Assembly (NCBI GenBank): GCA_033762035.1
Contig: JANRMA010000116.1
Coordinates: forward strand, 1-28,040
Source: Rickettsiaceae bacterium
GTDB taxonomy: Bacteria; Pseudomonadota; Alphaproteobacteria; Rickettsiales; Rickettsiaceae
Direction: 5' to 3'
DNA: 28,040 nucleotides
Position numbers and translations under genes: made by a program. Of the stretch, positions 1 through 16,327 are shown piece by piece (the stretch's first letter is position 1; the number at the start of each line of letters is the position of its first letter). The notes below the pieces were generated by a model. That model was not told the DNA's origin. It did not search any database and saw only the letters and a program-made list of their open reading frames with translations.

Positions 1-80
1 AGATTCCCTCTTTCGAGGGAATGACACATTATGTCACCCCCTTGAAAAAGTGGGCGAAGGAAATATTTATTCTAGATCCG
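1..80 (-). repeat. Palindromic REP-like repeat array 0 (A copy truncated by the window start, plus a B copy), inverted relative to arrays 1 and 2
   Basis: The minus strand of 1-26 reads TGTCA-TTCCC-TC-GAAA-GA-GGGAA-TCT (type A). The plus strand of 32-59 reads TGTCA-CCCCC-TT-GAAA-AA-GTGGG-CGAAG (type B). A 12-bp spacer (60-71) matches 6927-6938 in reverse complement. The array lies just 3' of addA. Confidence 0.9.
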
Positions 81-91
81 CACAGCAAATA

Positions 92-3000
92 TCACACCTT
101 CAGCTCTTCAAATTGATTATCCCTAAGCCAATATATATAAATTCTAACATTTGAGTCTGGATATATTATCTCTAAAGCTTGTTTATATTCATTCATCTGC
201 ACTTCATAATCTGCTTTTTTCTCTCTATCACCATCGGATTTATAATCTACTATATTTATCTCATTTGCATCCTTATTAAATGACACAAAATCAAGCCTTT
301 TGATTTGAAATCCATCTCCTGTATCATCTGATATCGCAATTTCTAACTCTGCTTCATTATTAAACCTGCCCAGATAATTTAAGAACTCGTTTTGCTCGCA
401 TTGAAATAATATGTTTCTAACCGATATTCTATCCTCCGCAGAAAGATTTTTAAGAAATTTATCAGTAAGTATTTGGGTAAAATTTTGCCCAGTTTGCATA
501 TAAATTTCTAATGCCTTGTGCAGTATTTCTCCTATAATAGTACTTTTATTGTTAAAATCGTAAAAAACCTTTTCTGCGCAATTGTCATATTTTGCGTTTA
601 GAGAATTAGGATTTATACTCACTATTTCATTCCCGTCATCTTTAAGGGGAGTTATTACATCTTCGGTATTTTGCGTCTCAATATTTTCACCCATTTTATG
701 GCTTTCTTTAAAATACTTAAGTAAAGAAAAACTACCATCTTCTTGATGCTCCAAATCTGAGAGGTTATTTTCTAAACAAAGCTCATACCAACTTTTATAC
801 TTATTCTCTTTTTTAGACTCTATTCCAGCAATAATTAAATGATCCTGAGTTCTTGTAAGAGCAACATAAAGAAGCCGTAAATATTCCTGATAATTTTCTT
901 GAATCACATTCTCTTTGATTGCGTCAATTTTTTCGTGGCGTACTTTAGAGCTAAGCACTGGCACTAAACCTGCGCCAAGATTCATATGAATTATATTACA
1001 CTTAGAATAAATATTTAAGTCGTTACTATCTATTAAAATTACAATTGGAGCCTCAAGCCCTTTTGCGCCATGAATAGTGGTGATTTTTATACTATCTAGA
1101 TGGGAAAAATCTCTTTTAACAGATATATCAGCTATTTCTAACAATAGAATAATATCGTTTATCCCAAGGGAAGGGTCTTCTGTAAATATCATTCTTATTT
1201 CATGTAAAAAGGCTTTTAGAGCATCAAGCTGCTCTTCATCTTCGCGAAGCCTATTTAATATATGAAAACTTTGTATAATATTTAAAAAAAACTCACTTTT
1301 ATCAGAATTTTCATAAATTAATTCTATAGATTTAAGTTTTTTTGATATAATACTATCTGACGCAATAATTGACTTATACCAATTTTTTTGACTTTTAAGA
1401 TAATATATATCTTCATCGCCCATATCAAATAAATGCGACTTTAAAAGACATGCGAGGTTCAAATTATCAGCAGGATCTATAATAAATTTTGCAACAGAAA
1501 TTAAGTCTCTTACAACTAAAGATTTACTTAAATATAACCTATCTAGCCCTGATATATTAATATTTTGCTTTAAAATTTCTTTATATAGCTCAAAATTCAA
1601 TGAAGATCTTTTTTGAACCAAAATCATAATATCTTCTGGTCTGACGCATCTTTTTTTACTGTCTAGATATATTTTATCATCAAGTAATTTCTTTATATAA
1701 ATAGCTGTTTTTTTAGCTAAAATTTGCTTAGGATTTTCTTGAGTAAAATACTCGCTAGATTCATTATTTTCAGCCGCCCGAATTGATTGTAACTCTTTAA
1801 GTTTTGAAGGATTTGGCCAAAATAAATCCTCTTTTTCTGTAGATTTAACTAACGGCCATATAGTAACAGAAGCATTTACATCTTGATTGCTACATTCTAA
1901 CATTCTAACTTGCTCTATTAAATCCACTTTACTAAAAATATTATACACGAAGTTAAATATTAACTTTGGCAATCTGTAGGTTTTTTCTAGATTACATTCT
2001 ACAAAATTAGCTTTGCTTTCTAATGCCTTGTTTTTTATGTAATTTTTTGCTTCTAGAAATAAGTCCGGCCTCGCTCCCTGAAAACTATAAATAGACTGTT
2101 TTACGTCCCCTACTACAAATATTGTCTTTTGTAGATTGCTATTAGCATTTACTTCATTGGCAAAAAAATCCTCTAGTAATGAGATTATAATATTCCATTG
2201 TTCTTGGCTTGTATCCTGGGATTCATCTACTAATATATGGTTAATCCCGCCATCTAATTTATATTTAATCCATTCTTTAATATCCGAATTACATAATAAA
2301 TTATATGCATAGTGAATTAAATCTTGATAATCAAGTAAGTTATTAATTTCTTTATAGTTTTTATATTCAGAAAATATAAAATTCGCAAGCCTCAATACTG
2401 ATACGTTAATCGCAAGTGCATTATTAAGATCTTGCGCGCTTGAAATTTCATATATATATTCTTGAATTTTGTATAAAACCTCTTCTGTGCGGGTAAGAAG
2501 ATTTTGTAAATCCTTTTTTGGTATTATTTTTTTTCTCTTTTGGCTGGTTTTTGTTAGAAAAAAAGATCTTACGTCTAGGTTAATAAATATTAAATCAAAA
2601 TTACTTGGTAAATTTTCAGAATAAAGCAAATTTAATTCCCTAAATTGCCGCAAAATACCTTGATTTTCTTGTATAATTTGATATAATTTTTGCCTCAACA
2701 TCTCTATTTCTTGCGTGCTTCTAGCGCCCAGCTCGCTCTTAAGTAATATATCAACAGCCTCTATAGAATTTTCGCTCAAATCAAGGCCAGAATAATAATG
2801 AGCTAATTCTTCTGTTATTTCTTTTAAACTATATAAAGATAAATTATTTTGCAGAACTTCATCGATATATATAGTAGTTTTTTGCGATAATAAAGTTTTT
2901 GCGATAAACCTGGATGCGCTAGTTTCGTCTATTACTCTAAAATATGGCTTCAAACCAGCCTCTAGAGGAAATTTTTGTAGTAAACTTTGGCAAAAAGCAT

Positions 3001-3352
3001 GTATTGTATATATTGCTACCTCCCTTCCTTCTGAAATATATTTTTGATAGAAATTACGTATGCGCTCTAAGTCCTTGTTATTTATGGTTTTTTCAAAATT
3101 TTCTAAAAAAAATGCTCTTATTTCTTCGTCAGTCTGGCTCTTAAAACTCCTAAGTACATTATTGATTCTCGATAACATCTCCCCTTTTGCAGCCTTTGTA
3201 AAAGTAAGACATAAAATTGACTGAGGATCTACTCTCGATAAAAGAAGATTAATGATCCTGTTGGTAAGAAGGCGAGTTTTGCCTGTGCCCGCGGAGGCCG
3301 CAATCCACGCAGAATAGTCGCATGAGGTTGCGTATTTAAGCTCGTGTGTCAT
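92..3352 (-). CDS. addA: Double-strand break repair helicase/nuclease AddA (UvrD-type SF1 helicase plus C-terminal PD-(D/E)xK nuclease)
   Basis: 1086 aa. Walker A ASAGTGKT, CLTFTKAA, LVDESQDTS, VGDVKQSIYSFQGA, TIHGAKGLE and LLYVALTR are present. The C-terminal RLD...IVDYKS nuclease motif is present. Confidence 0.9.
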   Translation of the reverse strand: MTHELKYATSCDYSAWIAASAGTGKTRLLTNRIINLLLSRVDPQSILCLTFTKAAKGEMLSRINNVLRSFKSQTDEEIRAFFLENFEKTINNKDLERIRNFYQKYISEGREVAIYTIHAFCQSLLQKFPLEAGLKPYFRVIDETSASRFIAKTLLSQKTTIYIDEVLQNNLSLYSLKEITEELAHYYSGLDLSENSIEAVDILLKSELGARSTQEIEMLRQKLYQIIQENQGILRQFRELNLLYSENLPSNFDLIFINLDVRSFFLTKTSQKRKKIIPKKDLQNLLTRTEEVLYKIQEYIYEISSAQDLNNALAINVSVLRLANFIFSEYKNYKEINNLLDYQDLIHYAYNLLCNSDIKEWIKYKLDGGINHILVDESQDTSQEQWNIIISLLEDFFANEVNANSNLQKTIFVVGDVKQSIYSFQGARPDLFLEAKNYIKNKALESKANFVECNLEKTYRLPKLIFNFVYNIFSKVDLIEQVRMLECSNQDVNASVTIWPLVKSTEKEDLFWPNPSKLKELQSIRAAENNESSEYFTQENPKQILAKKTAIYIKKLLDDKIYLDSKKRCVRPEDIMILVQKRSSLNFELYKEILKQNINISGLDRLYLSKSLVVRDLISVAKFIIDPADNLNLACLLKSHLFDMGDEDIYYLKSQKNWYKSIIASDSIISKKLKSIELIYENSDKSEFFLNIIQSFHILNRLREDEEQLDALKAFLHEIRMIFTEDPSLGINDIILLLEIADISVKRDFSHLDSIKITTIHGAKGLEAPIVILIDSNDLNIYSKCNIIHMNLGAGLVPVLSSKVRHEKIDAIKENVIQENYQEYLRLLYVALTRTQDHLIIAGIESKKENKYKSWYELCLENNLSDLEHQEDGSFSLLKYFKESHKMGENIETQNTEDVITPLKDDGNEIVSINPNSLNAKYDNCAEKVFYDFNNKSTIIGEILHKALEIYMQTGQNFTQILTDKFLKNLSAEDRISVRNILFQCEQNEFLNYLGRFNNEAELEIAISDDTGDGFQIKRLDFVSFNKDANEINIVDYKSDGDREKKADYEVQMNEYKQALEIIYPDSNVRIYIYWLRDNQFEELKV

Positions 3353-3473: not shown

Positions 3474-3902
3474 TTATATATCATGTTTTGTCACAACATA
3501 TTCTGCGGGCTTTAGTGTAGACACATATTCTCCGTTACTTAAATCTCTTGCCACGCTTGAAATAGAAGGATTATGCCCGACGATGCAAATAGTAGCAAAG
3601 TCATCTTCAATTGACCATATAAATCTCTTAATTATCTCACTTGATTCGGTGTATAGTAATTCTTCCTGACGGAAAAAAGTATCTGGGAATTGCTCTAAAA
3701 GATATTTTGCAGTTCTAAATGCCCTGGGCGCATTAGATGAGATAATAAGATCTATCTCGAACTCAGACTTTAAAGCCAGCGCTGTTTCTCGTGCCTGCTC
3801 TTCTCCTGTTTTACTCAAAGCGCGATCAAAATCGCTAATAATGTTTCCATTGTCATCAAAATTAGGAGCATCCGCATGGCGCATTAATATTATGTTTCGC
3901 AC
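3474..3902 (-). CDS. sixA: SixA-like phosphohistidine phosphatase (histidine phosphatase superfamily)
   Basis: 142 aa with a GTG start. LMRHA...DFDRALSKTG, SSNAPRAFRTA and IVGHNP are SixA-type motifs. Confidence 0.8.
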   Translation of the reverse strand: MRNIILMRHADAPNFDDNGNIISDFDRALSKTGEEQARETALALKSEFEIDLIISSNAPRAFRTAKYLLEQFPDTFFRQEELLYTESSEIIKRFIWSIEDDFATICIVGHNPSISSVARDLSNGEYVSTLKPAEYVVTKHDI

Positions 3903-3973: not shown

Positions 3974-4951
3974 ATGAAAAGTAAAAAAATAATCGCAAGA
4001 ATAGAGGCCGGATCTATGAGGCTTGATAAATATATCCGAATTTTATATCCAAATTTGACCCAAGGGATAATAGAAAAAATGCTACGTAAAAAAGATTTAA
4101 AAGTGAATAATAAATCACAAAAATCAAACTTTAGATTAAATAATGGGGATGAGATTGAAATTTACTTACCTTATATTCAAAATATAGCCCAGCCAAAAGA
4201 AGAGGAATTTGACTACAAATCCAAAATCTTAGCTCATAAACTATTAAATGATTACTGTATATTAAATGATGATAATATACTTGCAATTAACAAACCATCC
4301 GAACTTGCCTCTCAAGGAGGGACAAATCAGTTTATTTCTGTAGATAGTGCAATAAATTATCTAAATTCTTCTACTCAAGATACTATAAATTTTGGTTATC
4401 GTATTTGCCATAGATTAGACAAATCTACTTCTGGAGTGTTTTTAATTGCTAAAAGCCGCCTTGCTGCACAAAATCTTACGGAAGCCTTTAGAATGCACCA
4501 TATAAGTAAAACTTATGTAGCAATTTGTGACGGTATACCTAAAGAAAATTCTGGAATAATAGTGAATAAACTTAGTAAAAACGTTGCAAAAAAACTACAG
4601 TTTGTTACCAGCAGAGATGATTTACAAGGAGAAATAGCGGAAACTAAGTATCAACTAATTACCGCCTCAAAAGACAGATCTCTTATAAAATTTATGCCTA
4701 AAACAGGTAGGATGCATCAAATTAGAGTTCATGCACAATATTTAGGTTGCCCTATTTATGGAGATTTGAAATATAATATCAAAAAATCCAAGCAGGGGGA
4801 TACTCTAAGACTGATGCTTCATGCTTTAAATGTACAAATTCCCGAAGAAATAGTTGGCAAAAAATATAATATTAACGCAACATTACCAGATTACTTTGCA
4901 AAGGCAATTAATAAAGAATTTAAGTATTATGATATTAACGAATTATATTAA
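3974..4951 (+). CDS. rluC: RluA-family 23S rRNA pseudouridine synthase with N-terminal S4 domain (RluC-like)
   Basis: 325 aa. S4 motif MRLDKYI, INKPSELASQGG, catalytic HRLDKSTSG, TGRMHQIRVH and PIYGDLKY are present. RluC versus RluD is a judgement call. Confidence 0.8.
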   Translation: MKSKKIIARIEAGSMRLDKYIRILYPNLTQGIIEKMLRKKDLKVNNKSQKSNFRLNNGDEIEIYLPYIQNIAQPKEEEFDYKSKILAHKLLNDYCILNDDNILAINKPSELASQGGTNQFISVDSAINYLNSSTQDTINFGYRICHRLDKSTSGVFLIAKSRLAAQNLTEAFRMHHISKTYVAICDGIPKENSGIIVNKLSKNVAKKLQFVTSRDDLQGEIAETKYQLITASKDRSLIKFMPKTGRMHQIRVHAQYLGCPIYGDLKYNIKKSKQGDTLRLMLHALNVQIPEEIVGKKYNINATLPDYFAKAINKEFKYYDINELY

Positions 4952-5097: not shown

Positions 5098-5294
5098 CGT
5101 CATTCCCACTCTCCCTCTGATTGTCATTCCTAAGCTGCGGCGGGAATCCAGAATAAATATCTCATGGACCCCCTTTTTCAAGGGGGTGACAAGTATGGAG
5201 TAGTCATTCTGGGGTGTCTTTATTTGTCATTCCCGCGAATGCGGGAATCCAGTCTTACTATTTCCTTCGCCACAATTTTGATTGGGGCGAAGGA
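5098..5294 (+). repeat. Palindromic REP-like repeat array 1 (linker, A, 12 bp, B, linker, A, 12 bp, fold-back hairpin)
   Basis: A copies at 5122-5151 and 5225-5252 (TGTCATTCCCGCGAATGCGGGAATCCAG). B copy at 5164-5191 (ATGGACCCCCTTTTTCAAGGGGGTGACA). 12-bp spacers at 5152-5163 and 5253-5264. Hairpin at 5263-5294. Confidence 0.92.
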
Positions 5295-5339
5295 TAAACA
5301 TTTTCATCCACCTCAAAGGAGGCTCTATGCGGATGGGTA

Positions 5340-6641
5340 TTATTTCATTATTGGGCACACTTCTTGCGTTGTATTCTCAATGAGTGCCATGCGAGCTTGC
5401 CTCGCTTTTTCACCCGCTGGTTCTGCGCCTAGTCCAATATCTGCGCCTGCGCCTATTAAAGCAGCTACTATAGATTCAGTCGACTCGCGCTCTTGAACCC
5501 ACGCTGCTCCAGGTACATAACCATTTATTATAAGATCCAACAATTCTTCTAGAGAGTTTGTTAGAGCAATAGAAAGGGCGGTGCGGCCACGAGAATCTTG
5601 AGCATTCACATCGGCACGCACTTCTATCAGAGCCTCTACTACTCTTGCATTTGTGTAATTTACTGCACGATGTAGAAGTGTATCTCCATACCTATCTTTA
5701 GCATTCACATCCGCACCCGCTTTTATCAGAGCCTCTGCTATACAACTATCATCTGAGCATGATACTGTAACATCTAGAAGTGTATTTCCAGGCCAATCTT
5801 TAGCATTCACATCCGCACCCGCTTTTATCAGAGCCTCTAATACTGTTTGATAATGCCTATCTTTTGCACTATGTAAAGGTATATTGCCAAGCCTATCTTT
5901 AGCATTAACATCTGCGTCCGCTTTTATCATAGCATCTACTACTTCTGCATTATTGAGAATTACTGCACGATGTAGAGGCGTCATTCCATCACTATCCTTA
6001 GCATTCACATCAGCGCCTAGATCTATAAGAGTCTTTACTTTAGTTGTATCAGTATTATATTTTAATGATTTTAATGCATGATCTAGAGGCGTATTGCTAC
6101 AATAATTTTTAGCATTCACATCAGCGCCTAGATCTATAAGAGTCTGTACTAGTATTGCTTCACTGCGCTCTGCTGCACGATGTAGAGGCGTATTGCCACG
6201 AGCATCTTTAGCATTCACATCGGCACCCGCTTTTATCAGAGTCTGCGATACTATTGCATGATCTAGAACTGCTGCATGATGTAGAGGCGTCATTCCATCA
6301 CTATCTTTAGCATTTACATCAGCGCCTAGATCTATAAGAACCAGTGCCATATCTATACGATCATACTCTAATGCAAAATGTAGAGGAGTACTGCCAGACT
6401 CATTTTTAGCATTTAAGTCAGAGCCCGCTATTAGCAATTGTTGTACGTCGTCAATATGCCCCTCTCTTGAGGCTTCAAATAATTGATTGTTTAGGTTTTG
6501 CTGAAAAGGATTAATTTGCTCTTCTGCAACTTCTTCTTGAGGAGTGTGGGCTCTATTTATTCCAGTATCGCCATTATTAATACCATTTTCTTCTAATGTA
6601 TTTAATGGCAAAAGAGCTTCATTATTATTATCATTTTCCAT
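5340..6641 (-). CDS. Ankyrin-repeat protein (about 10 repeats), candidate secreted effector (ank1)
   Basis: 433 aa. Repeated TPLHxA...LIxxGADVNAKD units follow an acidic, Asn-rich, low-complexity N-terminal leader. Confidence 0.92.
   Translation of the reverse strand: MENDNNNEALLPLNTLEENGINNGDTGINRAHTPQEEVAEEQINPFQQNLNNQLFEASREGHIDDVQQLLIAGSDLNAKNESGSTPLHFALEYDRIDMALVLIDLGADVNAKDSDGMTPLHHAAVLDHAIVSQTLIKAGADVNAKDARGNTPLHRAAERSEAILVQTLIDLGADVNAKNYCSNTPLDHALKSLKYNTDTTKVKTLIDLGADVNAKDSDGMTPLHRAVILNNAEVVDAMIKADADVNAKDRLGNIPLHSAKDRHYQTVLEALIKAGADVNAKDWPGNTLLDVTVSCSDDSCIAEALIKAGADVNAKDRYGDTLLHRAVNYTNARVVEALIEVRADVNAQDSRGRTALSIALTNSLEELLDLIINGYVPGAAWVQERESTESIVAALIGAGADIGLGAEPAGEKARQARMALIENTTQEVCPIMK
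5595..6420 (-). repeat. Intragenic approximately 99-bp tandem ankyrin DNA repeats
   Basis: GCATT(C/T/A)A junctions fall at 5602, 5701, 5803, 5902, 6001, 6112, 6211, 6310 and 6409 (periods 99, 102 and 111). 5694-5736 is identical to 5796-5838. 5964-6030 and 6273-6339 match at 64 of 67 positions. Confidence 0.9.
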
Positions 6642-6676
6642 AATTATCTACCTAAATTTAATATTTATTGATATAT

Positions 6677-6705
6677 CTTATAGCAATTATAATAAATGTT
6701 GTCAA
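6677..6705 (-). promoter_or_regulatory. Putative sigma70 promoter of ank1
   Basis: The minus strand reads TTGACA-N17-TATAAG with a TG extended -10 element, 36 bp upstream of the ATG. Confidence 0.5.
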
Positions 6706-6715
6706 GGAAATTTAT

Positions 6716-6999
6716 AGGGATCTAGAGTAAATATCTCTTTCGCCCTCTATTTTCAAGGGGGTGACAAGGCTTAGAGAGTCATTCCCACTCCTCATTGTCA
6801 TTCCCACGAAGGTGGGAATCCAGTCTTACTATTTAATGGACCCCCTTTTTCAAGGGGGTGACAAAAGGCAAATCTCTTATTCTCTGGCTCCCTCTCATTG
6901 TCATTCCCTCGAAAGAGGGAATCCAGAATAAATATTTCCTTCGCCCCCTTTTACAAGGGGGTGACACAATGCATCATACCCTCTAAAGTAGGAATCTAG
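6716..6999 (+). repeat. Palindromic REP-like repeat array 2 (three A/B doublets plus a terminal degenerate A)
   Basis: B copies at 6738-6766, 6836-6863 and 6939-6966. A copies at 6796-6823 and 6899-6926, with a degenerate copy at 6972-6999 and a remnant near 6716-6725. 12-bp spacers at 6726-6737, 6824-6835 and 6927-6938. Confidence 0.93.
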
Positions 7000-7042: not shown

Positions 7043-7243
7043 TTAGTTATCCATTAATTTTTTTCTAACTAACTTTCTTCTTCTCCTTTCAGATTCTTGT
7101 TTTTTTCTTACTTTTTTTACTGAATCAGGTTCATAGAATCTAGACATTTTCATGTATCTAAAGACTAATTCTCTTTGCATTTTTCTTTTTAGGTTCCGAA
7201 TAGCTTGCTCTCCGTTGCCCGCATGTACTGATACTTGAATCAC
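7043..7243 (-). CDS. rpsU: 30S ribosomal protein S21
   Basis: 66 aa (MIQVSVHAGNGEQAIRNLKRKMQRE...RFYEPDSVKK). GTG start with an AGGAGGT Shine-Dalgarno at 7254-7260. Confidence 0.93.
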   Translation of the reverse strand: MIQVSVHAGNGEQAIRNLKRKMQRELVFRYMKMSRFYEPDSVKKVRKKQESERRRRKLVRKKLMDN

Positions 7244-7436: not shown

Positions 7437-9416
7437 TTGAGTCAAAATAGTAATTTCTCTGATAGTAATTTCTTAGATCAAGAGGTAAATAATTTAAGTT
7501 TTTGGTACATTATATCTTTCTTATTCGGAATATTGTATTTTTTCTACTTTTTACAGGATTTAAATTATAATTTTGCTAAGGATAGATTATTTTATTTTGC
7601 CATTATAGTATCTATAGTCTTGCTATATATAATATGGCGCATCGGCTTTAATACATTCAATTTGTTTTCATTTATTTTAAGACTAGCTCTATTTTTTTTA
7701 ATAGGATATCTATGTATATCTCTTAGATGCAATGCAAATTTTGAATCTCTTGATCATGACTTAAAAAACTGCTTGATAGAGGGCAAAATAATCAAAATCA
7801 AACCCACACCTTTTGGCGCCCAAGTTACATTACAAAACGTTAAATTACATAGTAGCTTTGATATGAGCAATATTAAATGCACATATAAAATACTTCCATT
7901 TAATGTTAGGGTAAATTTGAACAGAAAATATAGCAAAAATCTTCTTCACGGGGATGTAATTGCTTTAAAAGTAGATTTACTATGCCTGCCGGAAGAAATA
8001 GTCCCCGGCGGTTATAATTTCCGCAAAATTGCGTTTTTTTCTAATATAGGCGCTATTGCTAAGGCTAAATCTTATCCAAAAGTTATTACAAAGCAAGTGA
8101 GTTTTTATAGCATTCAGACTATAAGAAAAAAAATATTTAACTATCTTTTGGAAAACCTTGGGTATAAAAATGGCAATTTTGCTGCGGCGCTTTTTTTAGG
8201 GGAGGCGGGCGGTATAGACAAAACCATTTTAAATAATATGAGATATGCAGGAATATCTCATATATTATGCGTTTCTGGACTGCACCTTTCTTTGGTCGCT
8301 TCATTAGTATTTTTTAGCTCTAGAATATTCTTAAATTGTTTTGATTATATAAATTTTAATTTTGATATAAAAAAAATTTCTGCTTTTATATCTATTTTTG
8401 TTAGTTTTTTGTATCTTATATTAACCGGCGTCCAGATAGCAGCTTCAAGAGCATTTATTATGGTATTTTTTGTAATGATGACAATCATTTTAGATAGGCA
8501 TTCGCATCCATTAAGATCAATTTCTCTTGCTTGTTTTGCTATGTTATTAATAAATCCGGAATATGCTATATTGCCTAGTTTTCAGCTCTCATTTATAGCA
8601 GTACTCTCCTTGCTTGCAGGATATGAATATTACTCAAAATTTATCACTTCTCGCAAGGGCAGCATTTTTTATAATATTAAAATCTATTTATACTCGAATA
8701 TTTATTCATCGTTAATTGCAAGTAGTGCAACAAGCCCATTAGTTATGTATCATTTTTACATATATTCTAATTATTCACTTGCGGCTAACCTTGTAGCCGT
8801 ACCTCTAACTTCTTTTGTTATAATGCCATGTGCGGTGCTTGCTATTTTATTATACCCTATATATTTAGATTTTATTCCTACATATTTTATAAGCTTGTCT
8901 ATAGATATTATAAATTATGCAGCATCTGTTACTACAAATCTTCCCTTTTCCGTAATTTATACTGGATATGTTAGTAATATAGCTATTTTGAGCTTTATAT
9001 TAGGATTTTTTTGGCTATGTCTTTTTCGGAGTAATATAAGATTTTACGGTATTATTGGACCAATAATTTTTATTATTATTTTTTATACAGGACAGGGGCC
9101 TGATATACTTATTAATAAACGAGCTAATTTCGTAGCAGAAAAAAGAAGTGGCAAAGTTATTATTTACTCAGAGTATCTTTCGCCTTTTGCAAAAAATTTT
9201 ATTGCTAATTGGTTTGGGTGTAGAGAGTCTATTTTTGTAAAAAAAAATATGAAGCAGCCATTAAATTTATTTTACGAAACTACAGATCAAAATATTGAAA
9301 TTAATTTAGATAAATCTTTAGTAAAAATACATAATAGTCCTTATGAGCCTATCGCAGACATGTCCGTAATTTATTTTGCTAACCAAAATAAACCAATAAT
9401 AGAAAAAATAAAGTAA
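7437..9416 (+). CDS. comEC: ComEC/Rec2 competence membrane channel protein (no recognisable C-terminal metallo-beta-lactamase domain)
   Basis: 659 aa with a TTG start (exact start uncertain). GISHILCVSGLHL, SRAFIM, SFQLSFIAV and ANLVAVPL are Competence-domain motifs, and there are multiple TM segments. Confidence 0.85.
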   Translation: MSQNSNFSDSNFLDQEVNNLSFWYIISFLFGILYFFYFLQDLNYNFAKDRLFYFAIIVSIVLLYIIWRIGFNTFNLFSFILRLALFFLIGYLCISLRCNANFESLDHDLKNCLIEGKIIKIKPTPFGAQVTLQNVKLHSSFDMSNIKCTYKILPFNVRVNLNRKYSKNLLHGDVIALKVDLLCLPEEIVPGGYNFRKIAFFSNIGAIAKAKSYPKVITKQVSFYSIQTIRKKIFNYLLENLGYKNGNFAAALFLGEAGGIDKTILNNMRYAGISHILCVSGLHLSLVASLVFFSSRIFLNCFDYINFNFDIKKISAFISIFVSFLYLILTGVQIAASRAFIMVFFVMMTIILDRHSHPLRSISLACFAMLLINPEYAILPSFQLSFIAVLSLLAGYEYYSKFITSRKGSIFYNIKIYLYSNIYSSLIASSATSPLVMYHFYIYSNYSLAANLVAVPLTSFVIMPCAVLAILLYPIYLDFIPTYFISLSIDIINYAASVTTNLPFSVIYTGYVSNIAILSFILGFFWLCLFRSNIRFYGIIGPIIFIIIFYTGQGPDILINKRANFVAEKRSGKVIIYSEYLSPFAKNFIANWFGCRESIFVKKNMKQPLNLFYETTDQNIEINLDKSLVKIHNSPYEPIADMSVIYFANQNKPIIEKIK

Positions 9417-9534: not shown

Positions 9535-11034
9535 ATGACTATTAGCTTGCATCCTAAATTTTTACATAGAATTCGTGAGTTTATCTGGCCTATCAAGCGC
9601 CAGGAGTGCCACTTCTTTATCCCTATGGCATTAATAATGACTTGTGCTTTATATAATTTTGCATGTCTGAGAGCGGTAAAAGATAGTTTAATTGTATCTA
9701 ACGTAGGGGCAGAAAGCATTAGTTTCCTTAAATTATGGTTTGTTCTTCCAGCTGCTATAATCTTTACTTTATTTTACTTAAATTTAAGTAATAAATATAC
9801 AATTGACAAAGTATTTTACATTATTACAACCGGCTTTTTACTTTTTTTCCTAGTTTTTACATTATACATATTACCTAATAAAAACTTACTTCATCCGCCT
9901 ACGGAAAATATAGAAAAATTAGTGGCATATTATCCTAACTTTAAATGGTTTTTGAAAATAGCGGGACATTGGACTTTTGCTATTATGTATATATTGTCTG
10001 AACTTTGGAGCGTAGTTGTAATTAACCTAATGTTTTGGCAATTTGCAAATAATGTAGTAGATGCATCTAAAGCAAAAAGATTTTATCCAATATTTGGCGT
10101 TGTAGGCAATTTTGGGCTCATTATAGCTGGCAATAATTTGATATATTTTGCAAAAGTTGAAGAGGCGCCAACTTTTCTTAGTGGACTAGGTTTATATGCT
10201 TTGCAATTCAATGAGGATATAGGAATCAAATTAGCTATTTTATCAGTGATATTTTCTGGGGTATTAATGCTGCTTTTAATGCTATATCTAAATATAACGG
10301 TATTAAAAGATACAAATATTGACAATAAAATCACCAAAATTAAAACAAAATTATCGCTTGCTGATAGTTTAAAATTAGTGCTGAGTTCATCTTATGTAGG
10401 ATATATTACTGCATTAATTATATGTTATGGGCTTGCGATAAATATTTTAGAAGGCCCATGGAAAGCAAGTATAAAAGAATATTATAAAACCCAGGAGGAT
10501 TATATGGCTTTTATGGGTGTATTTAACGTTTTTATGGGGATTTCTTGCGTATTATTTATGATTATAGGCAGTAACATACTAAGAATTTTCAGCTGGACAA
10601 CTTCTGCTCTTTTTACTCCGGTTGTAATAGGGATTACAGGAGTTGCTTTTTTTATTTTTGTAATAATATCCAGATTAGGTAGTGATTTTTTATGGTTCCA
10701 TCCTCTTTTCGGAGCTATTTTAGCAGGAGCAATCCAAAATATTCTTAGCAAATCCAGTAAATATTCTTTATTTGACTCTACTAAAGAAATGGCATATATA
10801 CCGCTTCCGCCCGAGCTAAAAACTAAAGGCAAAGCTGCTGCAGAGGTTATAGGAGCAAAATTTGGCAAGTCCGTTGGCGCGGTTATACAATCTTTTATGT
10901 TTACTTTTTTGCCTAATTGCAATTTTTATGATCTTACCCCTGTACTTTTATCAATTTTTTTGTTAGTGATTATGTTTTGGTATTATAATGTAATGAAGCT
11001 CGCAAAAGATTATGAAGAAATCGCGTCAAAGTAA
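9535..11034 (+). CDS. tlc3: TLC/NTT-family nucleotide translocase, resembling the Rickettsia Tlc3 paralogue
   Basis: 499 aa with about 12 TM segments. LRAVKDSL, ELWSVVVINLMFWQFAN, AKRFYPIFG and KSSKYSLFDSTKEMAYIPL are present. The paralogue call rests on recalled similarity and tlc-hyp-ispB synteny; the family call is firmer. Confidence 0.85.
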   Translation: MTISLHPKFLHRIREFIWPIKRQECHFFIPMALIMTCALYNFACLRAVKDSLIVSNVGAESISFLKLWFVLPAAIIFTLFYLNLSNKYTIDKVFYIITTGFLLFFLVFTLYILPNKNLLHPPTENIEKLVAYYPNFKWFLKIAGHWTFAIMYILSELWSVVVINLMFWQFANNVVDASKAKRFYPIFGVVGNFGLIIAGNNLIYFAKVEEAPTFLSGLGLYALQFNEDIGIKLAILSVIFSGVLMLLLMLYLNITVLKDTNIDNKITKIKTKLSLADSLKLVLSSSYVGYITALIICYGLAINILEGPWKASIKEYYKTQEDYMAFMGVFNVFMGISCVLFMIIGSNILRIFSWTTSALFTPVVIGITGVAFFIFVIISRLGSDFLWFHPLFGAILAGAIQNILSKSSKYSLFDSTKEMAYIPLPPELKTKGKAAAEVIGAKFGKSVGAVIQSFMFTFLPNCNFYDLTPVLLSIFLLVIMFWYYNVMKLAKDYEEIASK

Positions 11035-12649
11035 AAAATCTCTGTTCCAAATTTTATTGAAGCTCGGAATTTCCGTCACTTTTCTTTGTGTAGTATTTTA
11101 CCTAATATCAATGTTTTTGATTCACCTTTTTTGGCTTTCTGTTAAAGATAGACTTCTAGAAAGTCATGAAAATAAAATTAAAATTTCAGACCGTAGCTTT
11201 TTAACATTCGAAAATGTAAATTACGAAGTTTCTGTTAGTAAAATAGGCATTAGAATTCTAGGACTCAAGCAACATAACAAGAAAAATGCAATTGTTGAAT
11301 TTAAGGACCCATTATTCATAGGATTTAATCCATGGAATTTTTCAATATTTTCGGCATATAAAGGTTCTGGCGATATTACACAAGATAATAAAAATTATAA
11401 TTTTGACGCAAACGTAGAGTATGAAGTTTTAACAAAGCTTGATTTTGTGATAATGAAGAAAATTCTTGCAAATCCTATAAATATTATTCACTATTTCAAG
11501 GCTATAAATTTGATATTTAATAAAGTCTCTGTCAAAGAGGGTGCTAAGAATATATTAGATGTATATAATACAAAATATACTTTTATTCCTAAAAGAATGC
11601 CCGAATATAAGTCTTTAACTGAAATTATAGATAATTTGCCCCCAGCCTTTATTTTAGACGCTAAATTAGATATTAAGAAGCTTAACAAAGCATTTTCTCC
11701 TCCTATAAGCTTTATCCATCTATTTCAATATCCTGAATCTTTAAGCGGACACGTTATTCTTGATATAGATTCAGATTATAAATCCTTGTCTATAAAAGAT
11801 ATTTTATCAAAAGCTAAAATAAGCATTAAAATGAATGATATTAAATCTGATTTAGTAGATTTTAACTCGGAAATTAAGATTGATAATACTCAAGATACTA
11901 TTAAATCTTATGTATCATTTATGTTTGTTCCCCATGTTGGATTTGAGGATAGAATTATATCTCTTATACTCTCTTCAAAGAAATTAGAATATTTCAAGAA
12001 TTTAATAGTATATAAAGAGGTATTGGACACAGTAAAAAAACAATCCCCGCCTATAGAGTTGATGAAAAAATATAGATTCAAGTTTAATACTTCATATGTA
12101 AATAAGGGCAATAAAATTACAGTCGACATACATGAATTAAATGCTTTTACAGAAAATAATGTTGGATTTGGCCTTAAAGGAAGCTGCATAATGAAGGATT
12201 TAAATATAAAATTTACTGCCGATGCGCTGATTTTTCGAGCAAAAGACGTTGTTTCGTATTGGGTGCATTATTTGATTCCGCCTAATAAAAAAATCGATAT
12301 CGGAATTGTCCCTAAAATTAATAGTTTTAATGAAGAATTATATTTCAAATTTTTGAAGAATATTTCAGATTTTCCCGAGTCTAATTCTAAGGATTTATCT
12401 TTAAAAATTAATTTTAAAAATGGCAATCTTAATTTATCTGGTAACGATTATGCTAGCATGATACAAAAATTTATCACTTTAAAAACCAGTATGGTAAGTA
12501 AAGCAGTTTTAGAGCAAGAAAAGCCGGTAGAATTTATTTTAGAAGTAGCGCCAGAATTAGAATATCTAACTAAGGAACTATTTAAAAAAGATTCTGGCAA
12601 AAATCAAAAGACAATAGGTAAGAGTTTGTGGCAGAGATTGATACATTAG
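11012..12649 (+). CDS. Hypothetical protein with N-terminal membrane anchor
   Basis: 545-aa ORF that overlaps both neighbours (by 23 and 22 bp). A single hydrophobic segment near the N-terminus is followed by a hydrophilic, probably beta-rich region. Confidence 0.8.
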   Translation: MKKSRQSKKSLFQILLKLGISVTFLCVVFYLISMFLIHLFWLSVKDRLLESHENKIKISDRSFLTFENVNYEVSVSKIGIRILGLKQHNKKNAIVEFKDPLFIGFNPWNFSIFSAYKGSGDITQDNKNYNFDANVEYEVLTKLDFVIMKKILANPINIIHYFKAINLIFNKVSVKEGAKNILDVYNTKYTFIPKRMPEYKSLTEIIDNLPPAFILDAKLDIKKLNKAFSPPISFIHLFQYPESLSGHVILDIDSDYKSLSIKDILSKAKISIKMNDIKSDLVDFNSEIKIDNTQDTIKSYVSFMFVPHVGFEDRIISLILSSKKLEYFKNLIVYKEVLDTVKKQSPPIELMKKYRFKFNTSYVNKGNKITVDIHELNAFTENNVGFGLKGSCIMKDLNIKFTADALIFRAKDVVSYWVHYLIPPNKKIDIGIVPKINSFNEELYFKFLKNISDFPESNSKDLSLKINFKNGNLNLSGNDYASMIQKFITLKTSMVSKAVLEQEKPVEFILEVAPELEYLTKELFKKDSGKNQKTIGKSLWQRLIH

Positions 12650-13674
12650 AAAAAGAAGAGAAAGTAGTAAACAGAATACCCGATTTAATAAAGAACCTAC
12701 ATTTTAAATATGTAGATGAAATTAGCGAAATAAATAATCTAATAGCCTCCCTTATTGAGTCTGATGAGCAAATTATAACAGAAGCATCTTTGCATATAAT
12801 AAATTCTGGAGGTAAGCGCATAAGGCCTATACTTACTCTTTTATGTGCAGAGCTGTTTAATATAGATACAGCCTCACAAAAACATGTGCTCTTAGCAGCT
12901 GCGACGGAATTTATACATACTGCTACCTTACTTCATGATGATGTTGTAGATGCTAGTTTGTTGCGTAGATTTAATCCGACAGTAAATTCTATATGGGGAA
13001 ACCAGGAGGCAATACTAGTTGGCGATTTTTTGTTTAGCGCATCGTTTAAATTAATGGTACGTGCTCAATCTTTTGAAGCTCTTGAAACTCTTGCTGAATC
13101 TTCTCGTGTTATTGCAAAAGGTGAGGTTGCTCAGCTAAGCACAAAGAAGCAAAAAATATTTATTGATGAAAAAATATATTTCGATATTATCACTTCCAAA
13201 ACGGCTGAGCTTTTCGGAGCTGCGTGCAAAGTTGGTGGTATTATAGCCGGCGCAAATCCTTATCAGCAGGAATTACTTTATAAATTTGGCTTATCTATAG
13301 GAATTATTTACCAAATAAAAGATGATATGATGGATTATTATTCAAATACAGCTGAGATTGGCAAGAATATAGGAGATGATTTTTACGAATCCAAAATTAC
13401 CTTACCGCTAATTTATTTGAGGAATATAGTATCGGAGTTAGATAGAAAATATATTGAATCGGTGATGATTAATAATGATTCGAAATCCGAAGTAGAACTT
13501 AATAAAATTATTGGCTTAATGGAGAAATATAATATTAAAAAATTGCTTGAAGAAACAATAGAAAAAATGCACCAAGAATCTTTAGTCTATTTAGATAAAT
13601 TAGAAAGTATAAACCTTGATGCTAAATCCTACCTAAGAGATTTGGCTAGTTTTGTAAGTATAAGATTATATTAA
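12628..13674 (+). CDS. ispB: Polyprenyl (octaprenyl-type) diphosphate synthase
   Basis: 348 aa. GGKRIRP, FARM LLHDDVVD, KTAELF and SARM IKDDMMD are present. Confidence 0.9.
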   Translation: MAEIDTLEKEEKVVNRIPDLIKNLHFKYVDEISEINNLIASLIESDEQIITEASLHIINSGGKRIRPILTLLCAELFNIDTASQKHVLLAAATEFIHTATLLHDDVVDASLLRRFNPTVNSIWGNQEAILVGDFLFSASFKLMVRAQSFEALETLAESSRVIAKGEVAQLSTKKQKIFIDEKIYFDIITSKTAELFGAACKVGGIIAGANPYQQELLYKFGLSIGIIYQIKDDMMDYYSNTAEIGKNIGDDFYESKITLPLIYLRNIVSELDRKYIESVMINNDSKSEVELNKIIGLMEKYNIKKLLEETIEKMHQESLVYLDKLESINLDAKSYLRDLASFVSIRLY

Positions 13675-13675
13675 A

Positions 13676-16327
13676 ATGAATAAATATATATATAATTTTG
13701 AAGATCCATTAGAACTACCTCCGCTAGAAGGCAAGTTTTTGCTTGGAACTAAGGGCTATAACCTTGCTACTATGACAAAATTAGGATTTCCAGTGCCAGG
13801 TGGTTTTACTATTACAAAAGAAGTTGGCAATAGATATTTTAAAGAAAATTTTGATGTATATGGTTTTTTAGAAAAAGATCTATTATCTCAGATTGCAAAG
13901 CTTGAGATGCAATATTCCAAGAAATTCGGCGATCCGACCTCTCCTTTGTTGCTTTCTGTTAGATCTGGTGCTGCTGTTTCTATGCCAGGTATGATGGATA
14001 CTATACTGAATCTCGGATTAAATGATGAAATAGTAAAAGGTTTTGCTGCAAAAACTAACCCAGCATTTGCATATGACTGCTACATTAAATTTATAGAGAT
14101 TTTTACAAATGTTGTCCTAGGTCTTAATTCAAGTATACTGCAGATTGCAAAAAAAGAACTTTGCTGCTCTTTGCGAGATGCTGAAAAAATTGAAGATATA
14201 GAGCTAGCGCTTAGCATAATAGAAAAATATAAAAAGTTAATCAAAGCACATTCTTTAGAATTTCCAGAATGTCCGCACAAACAACTTGATCTTGCGATAA
14301 AAGCCGTAATTAATTCTTGGGATAGCCAAAGAGCTAAGATTTATAGAAAACTTAATAACGTAGATCATAATATAGGAACCGGAGTTACTATTCAGGTAAT
14401 GGTTTTTGGTAATTTTGATGAAAATTCAGGAACAGGGGTACTTTTTACTAGGAATCCTGTTAATGGGGAAAATGAAATTTATGGTGAATATTTAGATAAT
14501 GCTCAAGGCGAAGATATAGTTTCAGGCAAAAGAACTCCTTACCCTATTTGTAATAATGAAAATTCTCTAGAGCAGAGAATGCCAGAGCAGTTTGAAGAAT
14601 TACAAGTTTTGTGCAAAAAATTGGAAGAATATTATGGAGATATGCAAGATGTGGAATTTACCATCGAATCTAGAAAATTATATATTCTTCAGACAAGGTC
14701 CGGCAAGAGAACTATAGCTTCTGCCGTAAAGATTGCCTTTGATATGGCATCCTCCCTCATTATATCAAAAGAAGAAGCTTTACTAAGGCTTGATGCTACA
14801 AAGATTGACCCGTTGCTACACCCGTGCCTACCTAAAAATATACCAGAAGAGCCTATAGCATCTGGCCTTCCGGCTTCTCCCGGGGCCGCTACTGGCAAAA
14901 TTGTATTTACCTCCGAGGCTGCAGAAATTTTTTCTAAACATCATGATGTAATATTATTCAGACAAGAAACTTGTCCCAAAGATATACAAGGTATGGCTAT
15001 TGCAAAAGCCATAGTAACTGCTAGGGGAGGACTTACATCTCATGCTGCTGTTGTGGCAAGAGGCATGGCAAAGCCATGTATATCTGGTGTAAGTAATTTG
15101 CATATAGATTTTGCAAATAATAAAGCCCAAGTAGGGGATGTAGTTTTAAATGAATTTGATGAAATAACCGTTGATGGATCTACTGGCAAAATATATAAGG
15201 GCTTGTTACAAGTAGAGCAAACTCAGATATCAAAAGAATTTGGCTCCATATTAGACTGGGCCGATGAAATTAAGACAATGAATATTAGAGCTAATGCTGA
15301 AACAATTCAAGATACAGAGATGGCGTTATTCTTTAAAGCAGAAGGGATTGGCTTATGTAGAACCGAGCATATGTTTTTTGAGCCAGAAAAATTAAGCCTA
15401 TTTAGGCAAATTATTATATCAGAGGAAGGTGAGGCGCAAGAGCAAGCTCTAGGTCTAATAGAGCAGCTTCATATGCAAGATTTCTTGTCCTTGTTTAGAA
15501 AGCTAAATGGAAAGCCTATTAATATAAGATTATTAGATCCCCCTTTACATGAATTTTTACCCAAAGACGAAAATGAGATAAATACACTCGCTGGCCAAAT
15601 GGGTATGAATTATTTAGACATAAATCGTAAATTAGATGAAATGAGCGAAATTAACCCCATGCTTGGCCATAGGGGTAGTAGACTTGGAATAACGCATCCT
15701 GCAATCTACGAAATGCAAGTAAGGGCAATATTTTTTGCAGCTATCGCGGCAAAGTCCGAAACTATACCTGTAAATATAGAAATAATGCTGCCATTGATCT
15801 CAAATATTAAAGAGTTATTAATACTCAAAGATTTGATACAAAAAGTTGCCCAGGAAATTATGATATCGAAAAATGACGTTATAGAGTATAAAATAGGTAC
15901 AATGATAGAAATACCTAGGGCGGCATTAATCGCAGATGTAATAGCAAAAGAAGTAGATTATTTTAGTTTTGGAACTAACGATTTAACCCAGACAATATAT
16001 GGAATTTCGAGAGATGATCTTGCAAATTTTATGCCTTCTTACATAAATGCTGGTATTTTTGAACAAGATCCATTTAAAACAATTGATAAAGAAGGTGTTG
16101 GGCAGGTTATTATTAATACTATGGAACTTGGGCGCAGTGCAAATAAATACTTAAAATACGGCGTGTGCGGCGAACACGGCGGAGATCCTGAATCGATAAA
16201 ATTTTTTAATGATCTAGATATGGATTACGTATCATGCTCTCCTTTTAGGATACCTGCTGCAAAAATAGCAGCAGCGCAGGCAGCAATAGAGGCAAAAGGT
16301 GATAATAAAAGTAATACTAGTATTTGA
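13676..16327 (+). CDS. ppdK: Pyruvate, phosphate dikinase
   Basis: 883 aa. LLSVRSGAAVSMPGMMDTILNLG, phospho-His motif GGLTSHAAVVARG, GIGLCRTEHMF, FSFGTNDLTQ and GVCGEHGGDP are present. Confidence 0.96.
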   Translation: MNKYIYNFEDPLELPPLEGKFLLGTKGYNLATMTKLGFPVPGGFTITKEVGNRYFKENFDVYGFLEKDLLSQIAKLEMQYSKKFGDPTSPLLLSVRSGAAVSMPGMMDTILNLGLNDEIVKGFAAKTNPAFAYDCYIKFIEIFTNVVLGLNSSILQIAKKELCCSLRDAEKIEDIELALSIIEKYKKLIKAHSLEFPECPHKQLDLAIKAVINSWDSQRAKIYRKLNNVDHNIGTGVTIQVMVFGNFDENSGTGVLFTRNPVNGENEIYGEYLDNAQGEDIVSGKRTPYPICNNENSLEQRMPEQFEELQVLCKKLEEYYGDMQDVEFTIESRKLYILQTRSGKRTIASAVKIAFDMASSLIISKEEALLRLDATKIDPLLHPCLPKNIPEEPIASGLPASPGAATGKIVFTSEAAEIFSKHHDVILFRQETCPKDIQGMAIAKAIVTARGGLTSHAAVVARGMAKPCISGVSNLHIDFANNKAQVGDVVLNEFDEITVDGSTGKIYKGLLQVEQTQISKEFGSILDWADEIKTMNIRANAETIQDTEMALFFKAEGIGLCRTEHMFFEPEKLSLFRQIIISEEGEAQEQALGLIEQLHMQDFLSLFRKLNGKPINIRLLDPPLHEFLPKDENEINTLAGQMGMNYLDINRKLDEMSEINPMLGHRGSRLGITHPAIYEMQVRAIFFAAIAAKSETIPVNIEIMLPLISNIKELLILKDLIQKVAQEIMISKNDVIEYKIGTMIEIPRAALIADVIAKEVDYFSFGTNDLTQTIYGISRDDLANFMPSYINAGIFEQDPFKTIDKEGVGQVIINTMELGRSANKYLKYGVCGEHGGDPESIKFFNDLDMDYVSCSPFRIPAAKIAAAQAAIEAKGDNKSNTSI

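Follow-up and report, generated by a model that had tools for sequence, protein, structure and literature searches.

Does a gene that stands between two repeat arrays of the same orientation form a mobile cassette, or is it a resident of DNA in which such arrays accumulate? The question is raised by ank1, an ankyrin-repeat (ANK) gene on contig C116 of a Rickettsiaceae metagenome-assembled genome (MAG; assembly G000, 1.23 Mb, 186 contigs, 33% GC, ~86% complete). The window, meaning the whole stretch of DNA that was analysed, is this entire contig of 28,040 bp, one end of which lies inside a hairpin repeat. Its placement in the Rickettsiaceae follows from the source names of the best protein matches ('MAG: Rickettsiaceae bacterium'), together with an AddA of alphaproteobacterial type and an ATP/ADP translocase. 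An initial annotation had read the arrays on either side of ank1 as possible landing pads for an integron-like effector cassette. Judged by its sequence, the repeat is a variant of the Neisseria Transformation Sequence (NTS)/dRS3 motif and belongs to the oriented hairpins of the NTS and Ssn-related motif (SRM) class, which would by class be substrates of the Ssn nuclease. The arrays are probably NTS/SRM hairpin doublets, similar to the neisserial intergenic mosaic elements (NIME), that build up and become homogenised locally where intergenic DNA is permissive, and ank1 would be a resident between two of them. ank1 is not a demonstrated mobile cassette.

The repeat unit and its relation to Neisseria hairpins

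Chenal et al. (Nat Commun 2025, PMC11893778) described the NTS as a 28-nt sequence, CGTCATTCCCGCGMAVGCGGGAATCYRG, that contains dRS3, and SsnA as a small GIY-YIG protein that binds and cuts the NTS solely as single-stranded DNA. DNA of the form NTS-gene-NTS transformed less well with SsnA present, and SRM were reported to be abundant in symbionts including Rickettsia and Wolbachia (PMC11893778). The link to Neisseria dRS3 made in the initial annotation was right, and is stronger than was stated there, as the first hairpin of the repeat (hairpin A) differs little from the 28-nt NTS. Searched with the NTS consensus, the whole genome contains 6 copies with at most one mismatch, 13 with at most two, 70 with at most three and 79 with at most four. 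The majority variant differs from the NTS chiefly in one compensated change of a stem pair from G:C to A:T.

The unit of 66 nt is a doublet in which a linker of 11 nt, present in two types, joins hairpin A (GTCATTCCC-N8-GGGAATCYAG) to hairpin B (typically CTGGATCCCC-loop-GGGGATGAC). On the opposite strand hairpin B reads as a diverged copy of A, which makes the doublet an inverted one; GTCAT and ATGAC close it. As single-stranded DNA, canonical units fold either into a closing stem bearing both hairpins or into the two hairpins alone (z-scores of -4.5 to -5), and hairpin folding over the units gave z-scores of -4.5 to -8.5. One pair of stem A is variable, being A-T in 53, T-A in 11 and G-C in 9 of 76 copies and unpaired in 3 (Watson-Crick in 73 of 76). 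This position varies over three pair types yet stays paired, which argues that the palindrome has been kept by compensatory change.

A profile search of the assembly returned ~150 non-overlapping units at 39 loci on 33 contigs. All units are of one 66-nt type, within which two linker subtypes occur; 124 of 153 units have exactly this length, and short variable joints of ~12-35 nt between units give a period of 79-103 nt from start to start. Up to 14 units stand in tandem, each array being uniformly head-to-tail. All 39 arrays are intergenic when the open reading frames (ORFs) considered are those real by length or Pfam match; the only overlaps are with short spurious ORFs. In 21 arrays there is no ORF between the array and the contig end, which indicates that the repeat is what breaks the assembly and hence accounts for its poor state. 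Nearest-neighbour units lay within one array in 54 cases versus 15 expected by permutation, an excess that points to local duplication or homogenisation. Arrays would thus grow through local tandem duplication and gene conversion. They would persist where intergenic DNA is permissive, in places at which lineage-specific genes (ANK, outer-membrane and symporter paralogues) may also accumulate, and would be inherited along with neighbouring genes when a segment is duplicated.

The association of hairpins with Ssn was followed in relatives, the nearest genomes in the collections searched having ~50% protein identity. Small stand-alone GIY-YIG genes (95-146 aa) were present in the hairpin-rich relatives G001, G023 and G028, and none was present in hairpin-free G003. 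In the congener G001, the 95-aa GIY-YIG gene has a hairpin A ~200 nt upstream and another directly downstream. Across 40 relatives, an Ssn-like match was obtained in 10 of the 11 with at least two hairpins versus 4 of the 29 others, these being kin genomes whose counts are not independent. The hairpin-rich G018 had short GIY-YIG matches only, interrupted by stop codons; its arrays appear to be orphaned, as all its Ssn matches carry stops. This closed 1.9-Mb genome of the same family contains, alongside the stop-interrupted Ssn-like remnants and 29 copies of hairpin A, at least 150 copies of IS200/IS605-type Y1 transposases.

The only GIY-YIG match in G000 itself was a UvrC-like ORF of 312 aa (C35 5893-7712). 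It is followed by a 260-aa ORF, while the relatives have one UvrC-sized frame of 620-650 aa; from these frame lengths, UvrC may be split or frameshifted in G000.

ank1 between its two arrays

Pattern searches of the 28-kb window found 5 A-type and 5 B-type hairpins, versus 0.05 and 0.00 expected from shuffled sequence. Together with the profile search they placed the two arrays at 5098-5294 and 6716-6999, as had been annotated. The elements of the locus are as follows.

5098-5294, plus strand: array 1
From 5098, plus strand: leader of array 1, consisting of GTCATTCC half-sites, followed by two units
5123-5191, plus strand: array 1 unit with a degenerate hairpin A and an intact hairpin B
5226-5294, plus strand: array 1 unit with an intact, NTS-like hairpin A and a long-stem variant of hairpin B
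5340-6641, minus strand: ank1, 433 aa (Pfam Ank, 8.7e-57)
6677-6705, minus strand: putative sigma-70 promoter of ank1 (TTGACA, 17-nt spacer, TATAAG)
6716-6999, plus strand: array 2
6716-6770, plus strand: first unit of array 2, truncated within hairpin A
6797-6862 and 6900-6965, plus strand: canonical 66-nt units of array 2
6973-6996, plus strand: terminal degenerate hairpin A of array 2
2-83, minus strand: third repeat copy (hairpin A at 2-25, hairpin B at 32-54), inverted with respect to arrays 1 and 2

The unit profile reads array 1 as '++' and array 2 as '+++', so that the equal polarity described in the initial annotation was borne out, as was the identity of the B modules: the 28-mer at 5164-5191 is the same as that at 6836-6863, and apart from these two sites the 1.23-Mb assembly lacks this exact variant. 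A rare GGGGGTGACA variant, of which there are 11 copies in the genome, is present in all five B hairpins of C116, the copy at 2-83 included. These private variants argue for common descent of arrays 1 and 2 or for mutual conversion or sequence exchange. Folded as single-stranded DNA, array 1 gave -12.8 and -23.4 kcal/mol (z-scores of -2.5 and -8.5) and array 2 gave -17.4 and -16.3 kcal/mol (z-scores of about -4.5).

The longest exact match between arrays 1 and 2 is ~29 nt. A match of this length approaches the minimum for RecA-dependent recombination, and excision of ank1 by simple homologous exchange should accordingly be rare. A model in which a single array was split by ank1 was also considered. 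The inner ends do not join into one unit, as array 1 ends complete while the start of array 2 falls within hairpin A, an arrangement that neither establishes nor refutes the model. Because both arrays carry their A motifs on one and the same strand, cleavage by an Ssn-type enzyme would fall on a single strand to either side of ank1. The consequence of such cutting could be restriction of incoming DNA, as in meningococcus, or promoted exchange, and the arrays may alter recombination or the fate of single-stranded DNA around ank1, as NTS-gene-NTS does in meningococcus. The inverted copy at 2-83, the ~39 arrays across the genome and the fact that the window is a whole contig ending in a repeat had not been part of the initial annotation. 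As C116 starts within the copy at 2-83, here too the assembly breaks inside an array.

The ank1 protein of 433 aa contains ~9-10 ankyrin repeats. No specific orthologue was found in public protein collections, in which only generic ANK-repeat matches at 30-46% identity were obtained. Its nearest paralogue, on contig C7, is 44% identical and shares the N- and C-terminal non-repeat parts. The two genes also have in common the TTGACA promoter region, the first ~20 nt after the stop codon and an array on the 3' side; the C7 paralogue has an array on this side only and lacks one at its 5' side. The TTGACA-17-TATAAG sequence is a putative promoter of ank1, conserved upstream of the C7 paralogue. It is absent from the consensus scan listing, the last base of its -10 element being G, and was read from the sequence and the C7 alignment. 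An exact search for it in metagenome contigs gave no match. A signature of foreign DNA was looked for in the base composition of ank1 and rejected: overall GC is 40.6% (98th percentile), but GC at third codon positions (GC3) is average, at 0.23 versus a genome mean of 0.243, and the high overall value is explained by the amino-acid composition of ankyrin repeats. Within ank1, DNA repeats at 5586-6438 are spaced in multiples of 99 nt (33-aa ankyrin units, 64-75% identical) and offer substrates of their own on which the repeat number can expand or contract. In the preferred reading ank1 is a resident gene and its own transcription unit, which happens to have an array in each flanking spacer.

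The genes around the locus, whose nearest two neighbours agree with the identification made in the initial annotation, are the following.

92-3352, minus strand: addA
3474-3902, minus strand: SixA-like phosphatase
3974-4951, plus strand: rluC-like pseudouridine synthase of the RluA/RluC family, the left housekeeping neighbour (Pfam PseudoU_synth_2, 2.3e-32, and S4 domain; NCBIfam rluA_subfam)
7043-7243, minus strand: rpsU, ribosomal protein S21, the right housekeeping neighbour
7437-9416, plus strand: comEC, ComEC/Rec2-family protein, divergent from rpsU

In the congeners G001-G003, sixA-rluC and the divergent rpsU-comEC are kept as pairs, while all between and beyond them is rearranged in each, and the comparison yielded no informative empty site. 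The best public match of RluC is 53-58% identical, and an RluC-based search for related loci in genome contigs confirmed none. The region after rpsU differs in all four congeners. G002 has one A+B unit at the 3' flank of rpsU, oriented as array 2, which indicates that the repeat at this site is old or that the site is a preferred target. In G003, the assembly of which contains no hairpin A, rpsU is followed by 400 nt of plain AT-rich DNA and then by a co-directional ANK gene of 100 aa, which is 35% identical to ank1, a generic level and not that of a specific orthologue. Either a resident ANK gene that evolves fast or cargo acquired independently at one site could account for it. The initial annotation had held that the occurrence of ank1 at this locus without arrays in relatives would refute a cassette; G003 comes near to this, with an ANK gene after rpsU in the absence of repeats.

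Genes beside arrays and the rival explanations

About 50 of the 55 array-flanking ORFs are not ANK genes, and most of those scanned are housekeeping genes: L25, TerC, a YfiH-like protein, exonuclease III, MnmE, photolyase, MutS and an ABC ATPase, together with Trm112, PrmC, AlaRS, a KdsB-like protein, UbiA, RpiB, SHMT and dihydrolipoamide dehydrogenase (Lpd). A gene for a 1009-aa TPR protein also adjoins an array. With respect to the flanking genes, arrays are in the opposite orientation in 33 cases and in the same orientation in 24, with no bias, and stand upstream about as often as downstream. Among co-contig array pairs with more than one unit, 2 of 5 are direct and 3 of 5 inverted. Inverted arrangements on one contig occur on C54, on C186, and for 2-83 versus array 1.

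Several observations weigh against the reading of the arrays as NTS-type doublets that merely accumulate around a resident ank1. ANK ORFs make up 5 of the 55 array-flanking ORFs versus 30 of 1059 others (odds ratio 3.4, one-sided Fisher p = 0.025). Just two single genes have an array in both flanking spacers, and both are ANK genes, a class that comprises 3% of ORFs. All three small OmpA/Opacity-like outer-membrane beta-barrel genes that were found adjoin arrays. The published degenerate SRM pattern matched the genome at 10 sites only, the window copy at 5225-5252 among them; the count is low because the majority variant has A:T where the pattern demands G/C. An Ssn gene was not found in G000 by whole-genome search or by tblastn with the Ssn proteins of six relatives, in an assembly that is 86% complete and breaks at repeats, so that absence of the gene is not shown and a 300-bp gene flanked by arrays could easily be missing. 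The arrays of G000 may be orphaned, or their Ssn gene may lie in unassembled repeat-flanked DNA. The ANK and outer-membrane genes beside arrays argue that array placement is not random, and the arrays may have a functional link to host-interaction genes.

The second bracketed ANK gene (C70 776-1564, minus strand, 262 aa, Pfam Ank_5, 8e-16) is unrelated to ank1. It lies between two direct arrays (region 499-1930) and is flanked by Trm112 and an orphan ORF of 491 aa, for which no homologue was found in four relatives. The surroundings of Trm112, like those of rpsU, are rearranged among the congeners. The arrays are opposite to ank1 on C116 and co-oriented with the ANK gene on C70. The three beta-barrel genes recall the NTS/dRS3 clusters beside Neisseria surface-protein genes and are located at the following positions.

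C152 3308-3928: OmpA/Opacity-like gene beside an array
C177 11249-11980: OmpA/Opacity-like gene beside an array
C128 2341-3138: OmpA/Opacity-like gene beside an array

Paralogues of the sodium:solute-symporter family number at least nine; they are 46-84% identical, some are 838-930 aa long, and in 7 of 9 an array lies directly upstream of the start codon. The regions concerned are listed below.

C51 6607-8457: symporter-family paralogue region
C152 1-2515: symporter-family paralogue region
C44 365-2072: symporter-family paralogue region
C149 1-601: symporter-family paralogue region
C52 7264-7648: symporter-family paralogue region
C186 1-1219: symporter-family paralogue region
C79 5513-8305: symporter-family paralogue region

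The homology between C44 and C51 (85% over 2.08 kb) covers the array as well as the symporter gene, and the order ank-array-symporter is repeated at two symporter paralogues. Duplications that span an array and a gene indicate that gene-array adjacency is inherited through duplication. As ANK-array adjacency is in part inherited in this way, the ANK counts are not independent.

In the cassette model of the initial annotation, arrays are landing pads and recombination between direct arrays, either homologous or by a hairpin enzyme, excises or inserts ank1 in an integron-like manner without an integrase. Arrays 1 and 2 are indeed direct and share a unique 28-mer and the rare GGGGGTGACA variant, the first unit of array 2 is interrupted within hairpin A, and the region after rpsU is different in all four congeners. 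The direct arrays around the unrelated ANK gene on C70 and the enrichment of ANK genes beside arrays likewise favour the model. Genes for processing of single-stranded DNA (comEC, dprA, recA and addA) are all encoded, and an equal idea, that the arrays promote exchange of adjacent genes, was proposed for NIME by Bentley et al. (2007, PMC1797815). Set against this are the housekeeping genes that flank most arrays, the inverted array pairs elsewhere, the opposite gene-to-array orientations of the two bracketed ANK cases, and the non-independence of the ANK counts. ank1 has its own promoter-like site and native GC3, its C7 paralogue lacks a 5' array, and an ANK gene follows rpsU in G003 in the absence of repeats. 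The longest inter-array match is close to the RecA limit. The only tyrosine recombinases found in G000 are two of Xer size (315 and 313 aa), on the array-free contigs C43 and C172, and no intI was found; neither a transposase nor Ssn was found there. IS110 recombinases, of the Piv type, target dRS3 in Neisseria phages; G000 gave no match to them (PF01548). The integron-like cassette was therefore not supported, and we regard it as unlikely. Genome-wide, the enrichment of ANK genes beside arrays is modest.

A broader form of this idea would treat NTS-type arrays as the boundaries of exchange or duplication of host-interaction genes (ANK, outer-membrane and sensor-symporter). Segments between direct arrays, of which ank1 and the C70 ANK gene are examples, would then be gained, lost or swapped via single-strand hairpin cleavage or array recombination. 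This would amount to gene shuffling outside Neisseria in a manner like that of NIME, possibly without a resident Ssn. We consider it rather unlikely, a little more so than the cassette itself.

Spread by a transposase of the RAYT type (REP-associated tyrosine transposase; IS200/IS605 Y1 type), where REP stands for repetitive extragenic palindrome, has been argued for Neisseria dRS3, and the units could on this account be doublets of the REPIN kind (REP doublets forming hairpins). The two related hairpins of each unit do form an inverted doublet, the doublets of G023 are symmetrical A/A' pairs ~82 nt apart, and Bertels and Rainey count the dRS3 21-mer among the REPINs, paired with a Group 2 RAYT. 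No match to a Y1/RAYT transposase (Y1_Tnp, PF01797) was obtained in G000 or in the hairpin-rich G001, G004, G023 and G028, however, and the abundant IS200/IS605-type copies of G018 represent a general insertion-sequence expansion. Hairpin presence follows the small GIY-YIG genes instead, and spread by a RAYT is very unlikely.

Improbable to the same degree is a role of the arrays in RNA or transcription only, in which they would isolate ank1 as terminators, insulators or mRNA-stabilising 3' structures and have no part in DNA exchange. Stable hairpins do stand at gene ends to either side of ank1, which has a putative promoter of its own, and REP and BIME (bacterial interspersed mosaic elements) have such effects in enterobacteria. 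On the other hand, no T-run follows the hairpins, a terminator scan found none inside the arrays, and no Rfam family was matched in the window. The absence of orientation bias, with arrays upstream of genes as often as downstream, and the tandem arrays of up to 14 units, far beyond what termination needs, also speak against it. That the bracketing of ank1 is an artefact of assembly, repeats having led to a chimeric join within a fragmented metagenome bin, as the many contigs, the arrays at contig ends and the repeat at the end of the window itself might suggest, is extremely unlikely, given that the arrays are short (~200 and 280 nt), that locus-private variants occur on both sides of ank1, and that an A+B unit is also 3' of rpsU in the independent assembly of the congener G002.

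Comparison with known repeat systems

In the preferred reading the arrays are NTS/SRM doublets in NIME-like form. With NTS/SRM they share the oriented 28-nt hairpin with flanks GTCAT ... ATCYAG and the core ATTCCC-N8-GGGAAT, the intergenic copies clustered around genes, including the 'NTS-gene-NTS' layout, and the small GIY-YIG genes flanked by the hairpin in relatives. They differ in that the majority variant has the compensated A:T stem pair, that the hairpin is part of a fixed 66-nt doublet, its partner being diverged and inverted, with the doublets in tandem at a period of ~80-100 nt, and that a small single-domain GIY-YIG gene (cd10448-type) flanked by the repeat was not found in G000, while one is present in G001. 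The host is of an obligate intracellular type, in which natural transformation is not established.

NIME consist of dRS3 repeats flanking RS elements (Parkhill 2000; Bentley 2007, PMC1797815), and according to the latter study had not been seen outside Neisseria. They comprise dRS3-type inverted repeats of 20 bp with repeat segments of 50-150 bp between them, are intergenic and lie beside surface or variable genes; the G000 arrays have the same ATTCCC-N8-GGGAAT repeats at a spacing of 79-103 nt in up to 14 units. Array positions are partly conserved among relatives, with differing copy number. In contrast to the more than 100 RS families that form mosaics in Neisseria, G000 has one spacer family with two linker subtypes, and its host is an alphaproteobacterial symbiont.

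Palindromic extragenic units, inverted doublets, mosaic clustering and long vertical persistence are features also of REP/BIME and REPIN-RAYT systems. The differences are that no RAYT was found in G000 or in four hairpin-rich relatives and that the G000 units are head-to-tail, not alternating. Integrons resemble the locus in having a gene beside an imperfect-palindrome recombination-type site that folds as single-stranded DNA. Unlike an integron, G000 is without intI, ank1 has its own promoter-like site and is not a promoterless ORF, the gene-to-repeat orientation varies, there is no cassette series, and the repeats occur genome-wide beside core genes.

The dRS3/NTS-type repeat is thus extended to a Rickettsiaceae symbiont as regular NIME-like arrays, a form held to be Neisseria-specific in 2007. 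These arrays adjoin ANK, outer-membrane and paralogous sensor genes much as they adjoin surface-protein genes in meningococcus. What is new here is the lineage and the tidy tandem-doublet form of a known element; a new type of mobile element is not established. A second, very distant lineage is now available for testing whether such arrays promote or restrict the exchange of host-interaction genes.

The composite pattern 'GGGAATCYAG, 11 nt, CCTGGATCCCC' was observed exactly in MAGs labelled Babeliales, Patescibacteria, Omnitrophota, Nitrospirota and Planctomycetes, as well as in several Beta- and Gammaproteobacteria MAGs and in one labelled Woesearchaeota. The presence of the A-linker-B pattern in many phyla indicates that the doublet architecture, and not only the single hairpin, is cross-phylum.

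Elsewhere on C116, a second ankyrin-repeat gene (22027-23610, minus strand, 527 aa) has no adjoining hairpin array. A tightly packed run of four genes at 9535-16327 of the window encodes a Tlc-type nucleotide transporter, a polyprenyl diphosphate synthase and pyruvate phosphate dikinase; its remaining ORF, of 545 aa, matched no family.

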